Below, one piece after another: positions 1 through 4,404 of a stretch of DNA of 4,404 nucleotides (positions are counted from its first letter, which is position 1; every line of letters begins with the position of its first letter). A program made the position numbers and the translations under genes. The notes beneath the pieces are model-generated. The model was given only the letters and a program-made list of their open reading frames with translations. It searched no databases and was not told the origin of the DNA. Source of the stretch: a virus (Duplodnaviria; Heunggongvirae; Uroviricota; Caudoviricetes). The stretch lies in IMG/VR virus record IMGVR_UViG_2582580934_000001; one strand, 5' to 3'.

Positions 1-480
1 AAATCCGAAACTGCAGCGGCATCATCGAAGAACGCGGCGAAAACCTCAGAAACGAATGCAGCTAACAGCGCACAGGCGGCAGCGACCTCACAGACTGCAT
101 CGGCAAACTCCGCGACAGCAGCCAAAAAATCAGAAACCAACGCGAAAAATAGCGAGACAGCCGCAAAGACGAGCGAAACCAACGCAAAGTCCAGCCAGAC
201 GGCAGCGAAGACCAGCGAAACGAATGCCAAAGCCAGTGAAACTGCGGCGAAAAGCAGTCAGGATGCAGCGGCTCAAAGCGAGAGTGCCGCAGCCAGTTCT
301 GCAAGCGCGGCGGCTGCTTCTGCCACTGCATCAGCTAACAGTCAAAAAGCAGCAAAAACCAGTGAAACCAACGCAAAGGTGAGCGAAACAGCGGCTGCGA
401 ACTCAGCGAAAGCATCGGCAGCAAGCCAGACGGCAGCTAAAGCAAGCGAAGATGCAGCCAGAGAGTACGCAAGCCAGGCT
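1..480 (+). repeat. Degenerate in-frame tandem repeats encoding SETNA(K)/SETAA(K) units (tail-fibre shaft repeat region)
   Basis: SETNA codon blocks at 46-60, 130-144, 172-186, 214-228 and 361-375; SETAA blocks at 4-18, 151-165, 235-249 and 382-396. The A/C/G-rich low-complexity DNA yields long spurious ORFs in the other frames (56..382 +, 62..331 -). Confidence 0.75.
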
Positions 481-1800
481 GCGGAGCCGTATAAATATGT
501 CTTACAGCCGCTGCCTGATGTGTGGATACCATTTAACGATTCGCTGGATATGATTACGGGCTTTTCGCCGTCATATAAAAAAATTGTTATTGGTGACGAT
601 GAAATAACGATGCCTGGCGACAAGATTGTTAAGTTTAAACGTGCATCGAAAGCAACCTATATTAACAAATCTGGTGTGCTGACAGAGGCTGCCATTGACG
701 AGCCACGATTTGAACGTGATGGCCTGCTTATTGAGGGGCAAAGAACAAACTACATGCTCAATTCGGAAAGCCCTGCCAGTTGGGGGCGATCGTCAAATAT
801 GGATGTGCCCGAAACAGGGACGGATAATTTTGGTTTTACCTATGGAAAGTTTGTCTGCAACGATTCTCTGATTGGGCAAACCTCAGCCATTAATATGGCA
901 TCAATTGCTGCAACAAAGTCAGTTGATGTCTCAGGCGATAATAAACACGTGACAACCTCATGTCGTTTTAAAACAGAACTGCAGGTAAGGTTGCGTATCC
1001 GGTTTGATAAATATGACGGTAGCGCAACAACTTTTCTTGGTGATGCGTATATTGATACACAAACGCTTGAAATTAATATGACAGGCGGTGCTGCCTCAAG
1101 GATTACAGCGAGAGTCAGAAAGGACGAAGCTACCGGATGGATTTTTGCAGAGGCAACAATTCAGGCAATTGATGGGGAGTTAAAAATAGGCTCTCAGATA
1201 CAGTATTCTCCTAAGCAGAGCGGGGCAACCGTATCTGGTGACTATATTTATCTGGCCACCCCACAAGTAGAAGATGGGCCTTGTGTATCATCTTTTATTA
1301 TATCAGGAGCGACGGCGGCGACCCGCGCAAGCGATATAGTTACAGTTCCAATTAAGAATAATCTTTATAATCTTCCTTTTACGGTTCTTTGTGAGGTACA
1401 TAAGAACTGGTATAAAACGCCAAATGCAGCGCCACGTGTTTTTGATACCGGCGGTCATCAAACCGGAGCGGCTATTATTCTTGGCTTCGGTCGTTCAACA
1501 GATTACGACGGATTTCCTTATTGCGATATTGGAGGAGCTAACAGACGGGTAAACGAAAACGCATCGCTTGAAAAAATGGTTATGGGGATGCGTGTAAAGT
1601 CAGAGCAGTCTACGTGCTCAGTAAGTAACGGGCATATATCCAGCGAAACAAAAACCACATGGTCCTGTATTCAGAACACCGCAATTATCCGTATTGGAGG
1701 CCAGACTACAGCCGGGTTACGTCATTTATTTGGTCATGTCAGGAATTTCAGAATATGGCACAAGGCATTGACTGATGCTCAGGTGGGGGAGTCAATCTAA
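1..1800 (+). CDS. Phage side tail fibre protein, 5'-partial (enters from upstream of window); Ala/Ser/Thr-rich repeat shaft followed by a lower-GC distal region with a LamG/concanavalin-like jelly-roll tip
   Basis: Frame 1 is open from nt 1 to the TAA at 1798-1800; the GTG at 379 in the ORF track is an internal codon of this longer frame. Nt 1-400 translate to KSETAAASSKNAAKTSETNA...KTSETNAKVSETAAAN with nine SET(N/A)A units, typical of Stf-type prophage fibre shafts. The last ~170 aa carry a LamG-like motif series (PFTVLCEVHKNW, RVFDTGG, AIILGFG, IRIGGQ, FGHVRNFRIWHKALTDAQV). Confidence 0.9.
   Translation, partial: KSETAAASSKNAAKTSETNAANSAQAAATSQTASANSATAAKKSETNAKNSETAAKTSETNAKSSQTAAKTSETNAKASETAAKSSQDAAAQSESAAASSASAAAASATASANSQKAAKTSETNAKVSETAAANSAKASAASQTAAKASEDAAREYASQAAEPYKYVLQPLPDVWIPFNDSLDMITGFSPSYKKIVIGDDEITMPGDKIVKFKRASKATYINKSGVLTEAAIDEPRFERDGLLIEGQRTNYMLNSESPASWGRSSNMDVPETGTDNFGFTYGKFVCNDSLIGQTSAINMASIAATKSVDVSGDNKHVTTSCRFKTELQVRLRIRFDKYDGSATTFLGDAYIDTQTLEINMTGGAASRITARVRKDEATGWIFAEATIQAIDGELKIGSQIQYSPKQSGATVSGDYIYLATPQVEDGPCVSSFIISGATAATRASDIVTVPIKNNLYNLPFTVLCEVHKNWYKTPNAAPRVFDTGGHQTGAAIILGFGRSTDYDGFPYCDIGGANRRVNENASLEKMVMGMRVKSEQSTCSVSNGHISSETKTTWSCIQNTAIIRIGGQTTAGLRHLFGHVRNFRIWHKALTDAQVGESI
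1786..1791 (+). promoter_or_regulatory. Shine-Dalgarno-like GGGGAG for the 1800 ORF, embedded in the end of the fibre gene
   Basis: GGGGAG at 1786-1791, 8 nt before the ATG at 1800; the ATG overlaps the fibre stop codon (TAATG), which suggests translational coupling. Confidence 0.5.
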
Positions 1801-2081
1801 TGAAAGATTTAACACTCAAATTTGAAGACAGGGCCGACTTTTCGGCCTTTATGGAGAGTATTGGCTATTATGATGACGAGTCGATGCAGGATGATATTCT
1901 TATCGACGTGATAGGTAACGTGTACAAAGAAACCGGAGAACTGACTGAAGATGGCGAACCGGTATGTGTTAAGGAAGACGGATATTTTGTAAACGTGCGC
2001 ATCATTAATGATTCGCAAATATCGTCATTATTCGATGAATACGTGGTTGCTGTTGAGCATCAACTTCGTGGCTGGATGTGA
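1800..2081 (+). CDS. Hypothetical small acidic protein (93 aa), unknown function, co-transcribed with the fibre genes
   Basis: ATG at 1800 with an upstream SD and 1-nt stop/start overlap with the fibre gene; stop TGA 2079-2081 lies 9 nt before the next gene. Protein is rich in D/E (MKDLTLKFEDRADFSAFMESIGYYDDESMQDD...). No family recognised from memory. Confidence 0.6.
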   Translation: MKDLTLKFEDRADFSAFMESIGYYDDESMQDDILIDVIGNVYKETGELTEDGEPVCVKEDGYFVNVRIINDSQISSLFDEYVVAVEHQLRGWM

Positions 2082-2084
2082 GGA
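2081..2084 (+). promoter_or_regulatory. Shine-Dalgarno AGGA for the 2091 ORF
   Basis: GAGGAAG at 2080-2086, with AGGA at 2081-2084 and a 6-nt spacer to the ATG at 2091. Confidence 0.55.
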
Positions 2085-2090
2085 AGAAAA

Positions 2091-3131
2091 ATGGCTACAT
2101 CGACAGTAATTCCTGATGACATCAAAACGCTAAAATCCGACGTTAGCAAATTAAAAAACGATCAAGGAAGCTACGCAACAAAATCTTATGTAGACAATAA
2201 AACAACATGGAATGGTTATTGCAATGTAATCTATGATCAAAAAACATTGCCAACAACTGGAACTATATTCAGCGGTAAGCTGCATTTGTCAAATAAGACT
2301 GGTGAAACGGAAAACGCTTATAGTGACATATATACCAGAAAAAATATTGATGGTACTAAAGATACAATGACGAGGATCGTCACACATAACGGGACAAAAG
2401 GTATCTTTTGGGACTTTAGTGATCTTTACGGAGGAACTTTAATTTTTCCAGGCAGTGATGGTTACCTTAAGATGGGGAACTGTCTCATGTCGTATGGTGT
2501 GCGGGGAAGTAACGCGCTTATTAAGTTTGATAATACAGACTCATTGCAGATCAAATATGCTAATCACGGGTCGACCATGACACTAAACACGCAAGGTACG
2601 GCGTATTCTGGTGTGTCGACGTTATTATGGGGAAATTCCAGCCGTCCTGTTGTTTATGAAGTCGGTGTTGATGGTGGCGCTTATATGTTCTATGCGCAGA
2701 AAAATACCGATAACACCTATATGTTAAGCGTTAATGGTGCATGTCATGCCACCGCATTTAACCAGCATTCCGACCGGGATCTGAAAGACAACATTCAGGT
2801 GATCGATAATGCAACCGACCGCATCCGTAAAATGAACGGCTATACATACACGCTTAAAGAAAACGGTATGCCCTATGCTGGTGTCATTGCACAGGAAGCT
2901 CTGGAAGCAATCCCAGAAGTTGTAGGTTCCGCAATGAAATATCAGGACGGTGCGAGCGGATCGGAAGGTGAAGAAGGTGAACGTTATTACACAGTAGATT
3001 ATTCTGGTGTTACTGGCTTGCTTGTTCAGGTAGCCAGAGAGTCAGACGACAGAATAACAGCACTGGAAGAAGAAAACGCAGAATTAAGACAAAGATTATC
3101 TGTAATTGAGGCGGCGCTTGCGTCTAAATAA
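2091..3131 (+). CDS. Tail fibre / tailspike-like protein (346 aa) with C-terminal intramolecular chaperone auto-processing domain (peptidase S74 type)
   Basis: ATG at 2091 with a good SD; stop TAA 3129-3131. Residues 227-346 read SDRDLKDNIQVID...RIRKMNGYTYTLKENGMPYAGVIAQEALEAIPEVV...YYTVDYSGVTGLLVQVARE...ALEEENAELRQRL, which matches the conserved pattern of the endosialidase / T5 pb1-type chaperone domain (SD-R-LK, G-IAQE-P-VV, DYS-L-V, terminal coiled coil). The N-terminal ~226 aa are AT-rich and Gly/Thr/Asn/Tyr-rich, as expected for a beta-rich receptor-binding part. Confidence 0.88.
   Translation: MATSTVIPDDIKTLKSDVSKLKNDQGSYATKSYVDNKTTWNGYCNVIYDQKTLPTTGTIFSGKLHLSNKTGETENAYSDIYTRKNIDGTKDTMTRIVTHNGTKGIFWDFSDLYGGTLIFPGSDGYLKMGNCLMSYGVRGSNALIKFDNTDSLQIKYANHGSTMTLNTQGTAYSGVSTLLWGNSSRPVVYEVGVDGGAYMFYAQKNTDNTYMLSVNGACHATAFNQHSDRDLKDNIQVIDNATDRIRKMNGYTYTLKENGMPYAGVIAQEALEAIPEVVGSAMKYQDGASGSEGEEGERYYTVDYSGVTGLLVQVARESDDRITALEEENAELRQRLSVIEAALASK
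2769..3128 (+). other. Domain: intramolecular chaperone / autoproteolytic C-terminal domain; predicted cleavage Ser codon at 2769-2771 (Ser227 of the 2091 ORF)
   Basis: HSDRDLKDN motif; the Ser in the SD-R-LK context is the established self-cleavage residue in characterised S74 domains. Assignment is by motif recall, not by search. Confidence 0.7.
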
Positions 3132-3137
3132 TATTAA

Positions 3138-3160
3138 GGGGCCGAGCGCCCCGTTTTATT
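3138..3160 (+). terminator. Rho-independent terminator ending the fibre gene cluster
   Basis: GGGGC (3138-3142), loop CGAGC, GCCCC (3148-3152), followed by GTTTTATT (3153-3160), 7 nt after the stop of the 2091 ORF. Confidence 0.7.
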
Positions 3161-3173
3161 GGGTAGGATGAAA

Positions 3174-3467
3174 ATGGATATAACACCTTTCCTTCATGCG
3201 CTTTGTGCTGTGGCTGCGCAGCTACTGATTGGTCTTTTTACCGGGAACTGGGCTTACGGGGCGATAGCCGGTTGTACGTTCTTCATTGCGCGTGAACACA
3301 CCCAGGCAGAATATCGCTGGATCGAAATGTTCGGGCATGGCAAGCGAATGAATATGCCGTGGTGGGGCGGTTTTGATACACGTGCATGGGATGTGGCAAG
3401 CCTGATGGATTTTGCTGTGCCGGTGGTGGCGTGTCTGCTGGTCTGGCTGTTGGTTAATCGTGGGTGA
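3174..3467 (+). CDS. Hypothetical small membrane protein (~97 aa from ATG 3174; in-frame alternative starts at ATG 3168 and TTG 3159), two predicted hydrophobic helices
   Basis: AGGA at 3165-3168 lies 5 nt before the ATG at 3174; stop TGA 3465-3467. Hydrophobic stretches FLHALCAVAAQLLIGLFTGNWAYGAIAGCTFFIA and ASLMDFAVPVVACLLVWLLV. GC is about 55%, unlike the AT-rich genes upstream. No family recognised. Confidence 0.5.
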   Translation: MDITPFLHALCAVAAQLLIGLFTGNWAYGAIAGCTFFIAREHTQAEYRWIEMFGHGKRMNMPWWGGFDTRAWDVASLMDFAVPVVACLLVWLLVNRG

Positions 3468-3477
3468 AAAAAGGTGA

Positions 3478-3606
3478 GCTGTATATGCAACGGAGGAAGA
3501 AACCCCGTTGCTGGAAGCCTGGAAAAAGTATCGGATGCTGCTGAACCGTGTTGATACATCAACTGCACCTGATATTGAGTGGCCTACGAACCCTGTCAGG
3601 GAGTAA
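3478..3606 (+). pseudogene. tfa: Fossil 3' end of a tail fibre assembly (Tfa) gene; only ~42 C-terminal codons remain and there is no start codon
   Basis: Frame 1 between TGA 3475-3477 and TAA 3604-3606 translates [42 protein letters not shown]. As I recall it, the phage lambda Tfa C-terminus is ...[36 protein letters not shown], a near match. Upstream frames are closed, and the unrelated 3174..3467 ORF sits in another frame. Confidence 0.75.
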
Positions 3607-3669
3607 TCATTGGGATTATGCCGCAGAACGTCTTAAGTAATCATTGGGATTATGCCGCAGAAACGTTGT
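3602..3669. repeat. Tandem direct duplication, 2 x 34 bp (first 27 nt identical), starting inside the tfa stop codon
   Basis: 3602-3635 is AGTAATCATTGGGATTATGCCGCAGAACGTCTTA and 3636-3669 is AGTAATCATTGGGATTATGCCGCAGAAACGTTGT. Confidence 0.85.
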
Positions 3670-3688
3670 ATGCAATAACGTTCTGCGG
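3655..3688. repeat. Inverted repeat / hairpin: 12-bp stem with one bulged A and a 9-nt loop; no following T-tract
   Basis: CCGCAGAAACGTT (3655-3667) pairs with AACGTTCTGCGG (3677-3688). The copy-1 sequence CCGCAGAACGT (3621-3631) is perfectly complementary to 3678-3688, giving an alternative pairing partner. A second 7-bp hairpin lies at 3696-3715 (ATGCACT / AGTGCAT). Confidence 0.6.
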
Positions 3689-3852
3689 TTGGCTGATGCA
3701 CTTTCGAGAGTGCATGTATTGAATTATTTCCAGCTATTATCGATTTTACGTATTTTTTGCATGAGAGAATTTGTACCTCCTCCCAACAACGACCTTCCAT
3801 GACTTTCCGGACTTCTGTGGGCCAGCGGACGATGCTGCCCTCGGATGTTGTG

Positions 3853-4404
3853 CTAATTGGGTGATGACAAATCCTGTGTATGGGTGTTTCCCTTTGTGCG
3901 TGCGTTGATGCTGGTAACGGTGAACGTCATGATGAACACAACCGCGAATAAGACGACAATCGTCGGAGCTGGTGCACTGTCGATAAAAAAGGACAACCAG
4001 ACACCAGTCATTGACACTATTACCGATATGCCAATCGCCAGTAGGAGCGCAATATGAAAGCGTTGTGTCAGGAGTACCGCAATGGCGCCAGGCGCAATGA
4101 GCAGAGAAATGGAGAGAATGATACCTACCGCTTTCAGCGTCGCCACAATGGTCAGAGAGACCATGCACAGCAGCCCATAATGCAGACATCTCGTATGCAA
4201 ACCGCTTACCTGCGCCTGTTGATAATCAAAGCTGAACAGCAAAAAATCCCGCCATTTTACGCTAATAACAAGTGTAACCAGCCCGGCAATAATCACCGTC
4301 TGGATTATATCGCCGATGGTTACCCCGAGCATGTCGCCGAAAAGAATATGGTCAAGATGTACGTCTGGTTTGACTGCAATATACAAGATCAGACCTGCGG
4401 CAAA
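3853..4404 (-). CDS. sitD: ABC-3 family divalent-metal (Mn/Fe) ABC transporter permease, SitD-like; 3' portion only, N-terminus lies beyond the window edge
   Basis: Minus-strand frame is open from nt 4404 down to stop TAG at 3855-3853. Translation ...LFGDMLGVTIGDIIQTVIIAGLVTLVISVKWRDFLLFSFDYQQAQVSGL...AVGIILSISLLIAPGAIAVLLTQRFH...FIDSAPAPTIVVLFAVVFIM aligns with the ZnuB/MntB/SitCD permease pattern (LFGDLLAV...LSxTISPDLAxxxG...xVGxLLxxSLLIxPAAxA...SGPxIVL). The sitD name is contextual (last permease of an operon next to prophage genes) and the symbol is less certain than the family. Confidence 0.8.
   Translation of the reverse strand, partial: FAAGLILYIAVKPDVHLDHILFGDMLGVTIGDIIQTVIIAGLVTLVISVKWRDFLLFSFDYQQAQVSGLHTRCLHYGLLCMVSLTIVATLKAVGIILSISLLIAPGAIAVLLTQRFHIALLLAIGISVIVSMTGVWLSFFIDSAPAPTIVVLFAVVFIMTFTVTSINARTKGNTHTQDLSSPN

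Follow-up and report, generated by a model that had tools for sequence, protein, structure and literature searches.

What are three genes doing between a side tail fibre gene and a fragment of tfa at the right end of a lambdoid prophage? The locus lies in IMG/VR virus record IMGVR_UViG_2582580934_000001, a stretch of 4,404 nucleotides of Caudoviricetes DNA (hereafter the window, meaning the whole stretch) that comes from a prophage in Escherichia coli and is 99.9% identical to strain CB209. A preliminary description, made from the letters alone, had presented the three genes as one insert standing where a canonical lambdoid locus has only tfa: a 93-residue acidic protein (gene 1), a 346-residue protein with a self-cleaving chaperone domain (gene 2) and a small membrane protein of about 97 residues (gene 3). 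It offered two explanations, a novel multi-component receptor-binding apparatus or structural genes accompanied by a cargo gene, and leaned towards a structural role for the first two. The analysis reported here indicates that the region is two unrelated things, a set of fibre genes (genes 1 and 2 together with the fibre gene upstream) and an independent gene 3. We consider it probable that genes 1 and 2 and the upstream fibre form a two-part side tail fibre, and that gene 3 is independent cargo of unassigned role.

The three open reading frames are genes and not chance reading frames, since each is matched over its whole length by a PHROG family and turns up again in genomes numbering hundreds to thousands. 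All three lie on the plus strand where the open reading frame calls of the preliminary description had put them. The upstream gene, a Stf-type side tail fibre that forms the proximal part of the structure, begins before the window, which holds its distal 599 codons (1..1800, plus strand). Its stop codon overlaps the start of gene 1 in TAATG at 1798-1802; gene 1 (1800..2081) matches phrog_1361 over its full length (E=2.5e-46) and is separated from gene 2 by 9 nucleotides that contain the ribosome-binding site GAGGAA. Gene 2 (2091..3131) matches phrog_4563, 'tail fiber protein', over residues 1-346 of 346 (E=7e-209). The fibre genes are closed by a feature resembling an intrinsic terminator (3138..3160, plus strand), a GC-rich hairpin, GGGGCCGAGCGCCCC, followed by a T-run, GTTTTATT. 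Gene 3 (3174..3467; phrog_1443, E=2.9e-58) begins 14 nucleotides further on with an ATG preceded by AGGA, the same start that the Prokaryotic Genome Annotation Pipeline (PGAP) picks in CB209. The proposed translational link from fibre to gene 1 to gene 2, the terminator behind them and the immediate succession of the third gene are thus all borne out.

Gene 2 and the fibre junction

The C-terminal part of gene 2 matches the Pfam family Peptidase_S74 (PF13884) at residues 227-278 (E=6.3e-14, 52.4 bits against a cut-off of 22), and a Ser-Lys dyad, S227 and K232 in the arrangement S-D-x-x-x-K, can be read from its sequence within HSDRDLKD. On the strength of the family match and the dyad, residues 227-346 (2769..3128, plus strand) are assigned as an intramolecular chaperone with predicted self-cleavage at Ser227 (HS/DRDLK, the stroke marking the cut) and Lys232 as the partner residue, in agreement with the self-cleaving chaperone first noticed there. 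The distal subunit of the S16 long tail fibre (PDB 6f45) aligns with this domain, and the protein is 85% identical to a 'putative endosialidase-like protein' of the virulent phage JenP1; no endosialidase or other enzyme domain was detected in gene 2. Like the Peptidase_S74 chaperones of the K1F endosialidase, T5 pb1/Ltf and S16 gp37, that of gene 2 has the Ser-Lys dyad and stands at the C-terminus of a trimeric fibre; it differs from them in the shortness of the mature part, 226 residues.

The opposite end of the protein is conserved in a different way. The first 15 codons of gene 2 (2091..2135, plus strand; MATSTVIPDDIKTLK) conform to the motif M[AV]T[SKV]T[VIN]IPxDIxxLK and probably encode a docking peptide. 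The same motif opens the reading frame that follows the small gene in lambdoid phages and in KarlJaspers, KarlBarth, JenP1, EC104 and IrisVonRoten, whatever comes after it. What comes after may be a 346-351-residue S74 fibre, a coiled-coil protein of 234 or 225 residues with a chaperone-like end, a 574-576-residue fibre in T5-like phages, or a 98-residue protein in KarlBarth. Genes 1 and 2 occur at 1745 places in complete E. coli genomes; 515 of these genomes hold both at 80% of their length or more, another 561 match partially. In many of the partially matching genomes that were sampled, which have another distal fibre, nucleotide similarity breaks off at query base 335, exactly where the 15-codon motif finishes. 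A second boundary of this kind lies within gene 2 itself, where residues 31-130 (2181..2480, plus strand) are only 45% identical to the protein of phage Tritos between flanks that are 91-100% identical, with sharply defined edges. Such hypervariability is the pattern expected of a receptor-binding cassette, and we presume that this segment sets specificity. The distal fibre as a whole is an optional and swappable cassette, since a 234-residue alternative exists and phage 21 has none. In the BASEL records of KarlJaspers (4270-4947 of the locus examined) and VogelGryff, the 225-residue protein at this position goes by the name 'putative lateral tail fiber chaperone'. With the docking motif at its start and an end resembling an intramolecular chaperone, this protein is more probably a distal fibre of the short kind.

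The proximal fibre shows where such a peptide might dock. It matches phrog_1419, 'tail protein' (E=1.7e-257), is named 'prophage tail fiber N-terminal domain-containing protein' by PGAP in CB209, and consists of a shaft rich in Ala, Ser, Thr and Glu followed by a lectin-like globular domain; it carries no S74 domain and has no Tfa partner. Within the shaft, positions 133-251 hold tandem repeats of 42 nucleotides (14 residues), and related genomes vary in length here. The globular distal domain matches the NCBIfam family GTA_spike_fiber (E=1.2e-13) and resembles PDB 6tb9 (E=1e-7 over about 245 residues), the head spike fibre Rcc01080 of the Rhodobacter capsulatus gene transfer agent (GTA). This sequence relative sits on head spikes, whereas the domain in the window forms the end of a side fibre of the tail and has accessory genes behind it. 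The last 40 codons of the fibre (1678..1797, plus strand; …RIGGQTTAGLRHLFGHVRNFRIWHKALTDAQVGESI) are the sole part of the distal domain kept across all alleles and phage families: they retain 58-100% identity, while residues -130 to -40 drop to 20% in loci with an identical small protein. A C-terminal motif, RIGGQ…RHLFGH.RNFRIWHK.LTD, is present in the window fibre and in 11 other fibres from six phage groups, and is common to lambdoid, T1-like, Dhillonvirus, Nonagvirus and T5-like fibres. The conserved stretch is contiguous, running from the last 40 residues of the fibre through the small protein to the first 15-20 residues of the distal protein, and what flanks it varies.

The order of fibre, protein of about 92 residues (joined by an overlapping stop and start) and further protein recurs across phage groups that otherwise differ widely. 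It is present in the lambdoid phages Tritos, 2G7b, PhiR63_1, HannyBb and PhiR11_1, in the virulent Nonagvirus members JenP1 and ESCO3, in the T1-like phage KarlJaspers (Hanrivervirus), in the Dhillonvirus KarlBarth and in the T5-like phages EC104 and IrisVonRoten; in the SSU5-like plasmid prophage PhiR41_1 no distal fibre comes after the fibre and small genes. Carriers of the module include strictly virulent T1-like, Dhillonvirus, Nonagvirus/Seuratvirus and T5-like phages in addition to temperate lambdoid and SSU5-like ones. Virulent phages carry little cargo, and retention of the module there argues for a role in the virion or in its assembly. That genes 1 and 2 travel with the fibre in virulent phages, and that gene 3 is separable from them, upholds the earlier preference for structural genes plus a cargo gene.

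The closest described counterpart is the lateral fibre of IrisVonRoten (Bas32), for which a published model (PMC11990801) has a proximal fibre whose C-terminal domain is galectin-like and a distal one that carries an intramolecular chaperone; the 92-residue protein is not discussed in that paper. IrisVonRoten gp22-gp23-gp24 (bas32_0022, 0023 and 0024) have the same order and belong to the same families as the fibre, gene 1 and gene 2. Its proximal fibre has a lectin- or galectin-like end with the C-terminal motif of the window fibre, its 92-residue protein is 76% identical to the EC104 copy (which is in turn 39% identical to gene 1), and its distal fibre opens with MVTKTVIPTDITKLK and ends in an intramolecular chaperone, as gene 2 does. 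It differs from the window in being carried by a virulent T5-like phage, in a fibre anchored through LtfC, in lacking the membrane-protein gene, and in a distal fibre that has 574 residues and is T-shaped with two binding domains, compared with 346 residues here. With the same fibre, small protein and distal fibre annotated in BASEL phages, and the proximal and distal fibres modelled for IrisVonRoten, the suggestion of a novel apparatus does not stand; the fibre module is a known, recently described kind of multi-part lateral fibre, of which genes 1 and 2 are new members.

A second system makes a fibre carried on another fibre familiar. In DT57C, LtfB is attached via LtfA, and a conserved N-terminal stretch of 45 residues shared with phiEco32 gp15 has been taken as the attachment element (PMC4728585, PMC10713586). 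The LtfA/LtfB pair of DT57C and DT571/2 is like the arrangement proposed for the window in that the first fibre, and not the tail, bears the second, by way of a conserved N-terminal peptide regarded as the attachment element, and both have S74 chaperone ends of the self-cleaving type. The differences are that no small gene stands between ltfA and ltfB, that the attachment peptide and the partner region are other sequences, and that LtfA ends in an S74 domain whereas the proximal fibre of the window ends in a lectin-like domain. The Stf/Tfa pair of lambda shares with the window its position after J and lom, the family of the N-terminal anchor and a small gene translationally coupled to the fibre. 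It departs from the window in that the distal half of its fibre is another domain, that gene 1 is without similarity to Tfa, and that lambda has no second fibre.

Taken together, these comparisons suggest the following assembly. The long proximal fibre would be anchored to the tail through an N-terminus that is encoded before the window begins, and would present the lectin-like globular domain at its far end. Gene 1, translated in step with the fibre and filling the genomic place of lambda Tfa, would most likely aid the folding or trimerisation of the proximal fibre end, and its product may remain in the joint. The short distal fibre encoded by gene 2 would trimerise by means of its own C-terminal S74 chaperone, which would then cut itself off at Ser227, and its 15-residue N-terminal peptide would dock onto the conserved end of the proximal fibre or onto the small protein. 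Its variable middle would provide a second receptor specificity on a distal fibre that is exchangeable and optional. What the analysis shows is the identity, synteny, modularity and distribution of the genes. The docking step is deduced from conservation: the tails of these phage groups are unrelated, and the fibre end and the small protein are all that the groups have in common as partners. That gene 1 acts as a helper is likewise an indirect conclusion.

The small acidic protein

The product of gene 1 is acidic, as first described, with a pI of 4.05 and 22 Asp and Glu against 7 Lys and Arg residues. It has no match in Pfam, NCBIfam or PADLOC (E<=1) and no relative of solved structure by sequence search. 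An AlphaFold2 (AF2) model gives an alpha/beta fold of moderate confidence (a pLDDT, or predicted local distance difference test score, of 81), for which fold searches returned no informative match and BFVD gave uncharacterised phage proteins only; a second profile search recovered nearly the same close E. coli set and added little diversity. Genomic context is more telling. Homologues found by tblastn occur in 181 phage records from at least six phage groups, directly behind a lateral or side fibre gene, and it is very likely that gene 1 is a fibre accessory of some kind. Its location in the position of lambda tfa, together with translational coupling to a fibre that has no other chaperone, suggests an assembly helper, and we rank this role somewhat above that of a permanent joint. 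Gene 1 may act like Tfa though it is not a member of the Tfa family. Among the rV5-like myoviruses there are diverged copies of gene 1 whose next gene lacks the docking motif; the PhageMaP essentiality paper holds no data on the rV5-like homologue.

How the small protein and the distal fibre are engaged allows of other explanations. In one, the product of gene 1 stays permanently in the structure as a joint, the small protein sitting as a trimer at the end of the proximal fibre and gripping the N-terminal peptide of the distal one. The adjacency of the three conserved elements would follow naturally from such a joint, as would the service of one small-protein allele to very different fibre domains, which is expected if the contacts involve conserved surfaces only, and the IrisVonRoten homologue bas32_0023 is annotated 'tail fiber protein'. 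However, phage 21-type lambdoid phages and the SSU5-like PhiR41_1 keep the small gene without a distal fibre anywhere, and the diverged small gene of the rV5-like phages is not followed by a motif-bearing gene; the possibility that an unlinked distal fibre serves phage 21 was addressed by a search for the docking motif, which is found nowhere in its 42.9-kb genome. Gene 1 therefore cannot be merely a distal-fibre joint, and we regard a permanent joint as possible but rather doubtful. A different proposal detaches the 346-residue protein from the long fibre altogether and makes it a free-standing spike or fibre bound straight to the tail tip. Its possession of its own chaperone means that it could fold alone, and its N-terminus is short. 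Yet that N-terminal motif is shared by phages with unrelated tail tips (lambdoid, T1-like, T5-like and Nonagvirus), and the second gene upstream is always a fibre gene whose product has the same conserved C-terminus; to judge from known anchors such as that of T7 gp17, a 15-residue peptide with a coiled coil is probably too small for a baseplate-binding domain. This arrangement seems to us quite improbable.

The two-part fibre with a helper protein, which we prefer, has its own difficulties. Gene 1 has no similarity to Tfa or Caudo_TAP-type families or to known chaperones. The same small-protein allele is found with fibre domains just 20% identical, a pairing hard to reconcile with a helper fitted to the variable domain; gene 1 can therefore read conserved surfaces only. 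Covariation between the small protein and the variable domain of the fibre is weak (r=0.18-0.38) and confounded by linkage. Retention of gene 1 in phage 21, its relatives and PhiR41_1, which have no motif-bearing distal fibre, means that gene 1 cannot serve solely as a joint. Linkage of adjacent segments could partly account for the conservation of the junction. Finally, the evidence is non-experimental: for this module, no proteomic data on virions, no data on cleavage and no phenotypes of mutants were found.

The membrane-protein gene

Gene 3 encodes a small inner-membrane protein for which the AF2 model is a confident membrane bundle (pLDDT 90) with helices at residues 4-23, 26-53 and 74-96. 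The size and membrane nature given in the preliminary description are confirmed, and its two helices become three. The family comprises 438 clusters at 50% identity, all of them stand-alone proteins of about 90-130 residues, and has a highly conserved loop, AREHTQAEYRWI…GKRxNMPWWGGFDxRxW. A comparison of 101 diverse members shows no variation at R40, E41 and W72 and very little at H8, Q44, A45, E46 and P83, and in the model the conserved residues lie around the junction of helix 2 and the loop, on one face of the membrane. Sequence comparison with Pfam, NCBIfam, PADLOC and the PDB gave no match for gene 3, a fold search against the PDB returned generic helix bundles only, and a Pfam scan of the 101 relatives produced only sub-threshold PhoR-anchor matches, in six members. 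Members of the family occur as far afield as Aeromonas, Comamonas, Halomonas, Sphingomonas-type alphaproteobacteria and Desulfovibrio. A tail fibre or spike is again the upstream neighbour of the homologue in Comamonas, Pantoea and Leclercia. Alphaproteobacterial homologues, of Sphingomonas type and others, adjoin genes for NAD-dependent DNA ligase, pirin, RNase PH and DAHP synthase; because these are housekeeping and not phage genes, the family is not confined to phages. No conserved partner gene stands beside gene 3, its neighbours being heterogeneous on both sides across 59-61 loci of different species.

The gene is abundant and its company changes. Of 5426 complete E. coli genomes, 1900 carry it, at 3885 places in all; the median is two copies and the maximum seven. 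Phage 21 has a copy 95% identical to that of the window directly after the small gene, without gene 2; PhiR41_1 also has it after the small gene, and the Halomonas myovirus phiHAP-1 after tfa. In the P22-like phages Gally and 611R6 it lies downstream of the tailspike, without genes 1 and 2. In the locus examined from vB_EcoP-611R6, a P22-like podovirus, positions 3270-3800 hold the last 165 or so nucleotides of an S74 fibre gene, the same terminator and gene 3, an arrangement which implies that gene 3 crossed between phage morphotypes with a scrap of its left neighbour; the gene there lies downstream of the tailspike and an OafA-type O-acetylase. It was not seen after the distal fibre at seven annotated fibre-module loci of virulent phages, and among the 60 of 73 tblastn records that were listed none came from the virulent groups with the module and none was a full-length hit in a virulent phage. 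The 80 IMG/VR loci with a close copy of gene 3 all have a small gene upstream, of at least three types, and beside it a distal fibre of 234 residues (39 loci), one of 346 residues (33), a degraded one (2) or none (6). The presence or absence of gene 3 is thus independent of the flanking structural genes, as it is for a moron or cargo gene, and gene 3 is independent prophage cargo separable from genes 1 and 2.

This distribution bears directly on whether all three genes could be one new multi-component apparatus for receptor binding or host interaction. The genes are adjacent and co-oriented, and 72 of the 80 IMG/VR loci with the membrane-protein gene also have the small gene and a distal fibre, so that the neighbourhood survey proposed at the outset does find the three together. 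It also finds them apart: gene 3 occurs without genes 1 and 2 in P22-like phages and phiHAP-1, phage 21 lacks gene 2, and the virulent carriers examined have genes 1 and 2 without gene 3. Moreover, a terminator separates gene 2 from gene 3 in the window, and gene 3 is an inner-membrane protein with chromosomal homologues outside prophages. A single apparatus is largely refuted by the distribution of the genes and must be considered exceedingly improbable; the insert described as one unit consists instead of separable modules that reassort. Nearly as remote is the idea that an element of anti-phage defence, of toxin-antitoxin type or of regulation, whether known or candidate, stands among the three genes. 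Accessory genes do favour the end of the late operon, a known hotspot, as P2 fun/Z, cor and HK97 gp15 illustrate, but no PADLOC-DB family was matched at E<=1 by any of the three proteins, and no such Pfam or NCBIfam family was matched either, in keeping with the earlier failure to see a defence, toxin or regulator motif. Whether gene 3 has its role in the lytic cycle instead of the lysogen, for example in adjusting the envelope or lysis at a late stage of infection while co-transcribed with the late fibre genes, is a closer question. In phage 21, PhiR49_1 and PhiR41_1 gene 3 starts 9-12 nucleotides past the preceding late gene with the ribosome-binding site alone between them, no sigma-70-like promoter lies upstream of it in the window, and partial homologues occur in large Aeromonas phages. 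Set against this are its absence from the virulent coliphages with the fibre module that were examined, its place in P22-like phages in the tailspike-to-int region where lysogenic-conversion genes lie (after the O-acetylase in 611R6), its up to seven copies per genome and its homologues in non-prophage chromosomal contexts. A lytic role therefore strikes us as unlikely.

What gene 3 might do for its carrier is suggested by the company of small membrane or envelope proteins encoded beside the host-range genes of phages, including T4 Imm, HK97 gp15, P22 SieA, phi80 and N15 Cor, and P2 fun/Z. Like them, gene 3 encodes a small membrane protein, lies beside receptor-binding genes, is found mainly in temperate carriers and is independent of the structural genes; unlike what these cargo systems offer for comparison, its family also has non-phage chromosomal members. 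No sequence similarity or informative fold similarity of gene 3 to T4 Imm, HK97 gp15, SieA, Cor or fun/Z was found. The Tai tail-assembly-inhibition proteins were also considered and rejected, being of 26 kDa, encoded near Q and directed at J. Superinfection exclusion or another effect on the envelope is a reasonable guess, prompted by the position of the gene and the type of phage that carries it. Gene 3 would then act on a conserved component of the inner membrane or envelope of the infected or lysogenic cell, for instance by hindering the entry of other phages. More fully stated, gene 3 would belong to a large, unnamed three-helix family of alpha-, beta- and gammaproteobacteria that has been captured repeatedly by at least four morphologically different temperate phage groups, which set it beside their receptor-binding genes, and that alters entry or the cell surface, a proposal that we put forward tentatively and think somewhat doubtful.

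The control of gene 3 argues for caution about action in the lysogen. No promoter of its own was detected for gene 3, no terminator follows it in the window, and a search for a promoter conserved across contexts found none, the upstream sequence varying with the context. In several phages the gene must be read together with the late fibre genes, and its expression in the lysogen is therefore presumptive. The alphaproteobacterial context, in turn, fits a cellular function better than a purely anti-phage one. Both considerations tell against gene 3 as an exclusion factor of the prophage. In Gally an AT-rich intergenic region of 240 nucleotides (3260-3500 of the locus examined) precedes gene 3, unlike the tight coupling in lambdoid phages, and is a possible promoter site.

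Right edge of the locus and wider meaning

Beyond gene 3, positions 3487..3606 (plus strand) hold the C-terminal 40 codons of tfa, which PGAP annotates in CB209 as a pseudogene, 'tail fiber assembly protein, missing N-terminus', so that the fossil noticed at first is one. In phage 21, as in numerous other lambdoid phages, part of it goes along with gene 3. The remnant is a recombination scar and marks the right-hand crossover, on the right edge of the cassette of fibre genes, where a lambda-type stf-tfa pair would have been replaced by the present type of fibre with its own downstream genes; the distal fibre would have been exchanged later, behind the conserved 15 codons. A canonical locus with only tfa is accordingly the wrong frame for this one, since this type of fibre goes without tfa and has cognate downstream genes of its own.

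In CB209 the order is tape measure … J, lom, fibre, hypothetical, 'tail fiber domain-containing protein', hypothetical, tfa pseudogene, sitDCBA and the chromosomal genes uspF and ompN. The CB209 annotation places sitD at 3853-4404 and onward in the window, on the minus strand; sitD, and by extension the iron/manganese transporter operon sitABCD, is prophage cargo, and phage 21 has sitABCD at the same position, directly after the membrane-protein gene. Just past the tfa remnant, at 3602-3662, lies an exact direct repeat of 27 nucleotides (AGTAATCATTGGGATTATGCCGCAGAA) with a period of 34 nucleotides. Because CB209 is 34 bp shorter here, the 34-nucleotide unit is a strain-polymorphic duplication. 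It is followed by an inverted repeat of 11 nucleotides (3621-3631 and 3678-3688) and a palindrome of 20 nucleotides (3696-3715). Insertions of IS3-family transposases interrupt the fibre locus in several E. coli genomes.

For annotation, the consequence of these results is that two 'hypothetical proteins' beside prophage fibre genes can be named, one as a fibre accessory protein and the other as an exchangeable distal fibre with a putative 15-residue docking peptide. This affects counts of receptor-binding genes in E. coli prophages and the prediction of host range. An engineer may see in the conserved junction a natural plug-and-play socket common to lambdoid, T1-like, T5-like and Nonagvirus phages. 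Gene 3 is the only part of the locus with real potential for discovery: it is among the commonest accessory genes of E. coli prophages and has no family name. Should it indeed alter the cell surface or the entry of phages, it would count as a new factor of lysogenic conversion or exclusion, and an extremely widespread one, carried by about one third of complete E. coli genomes.

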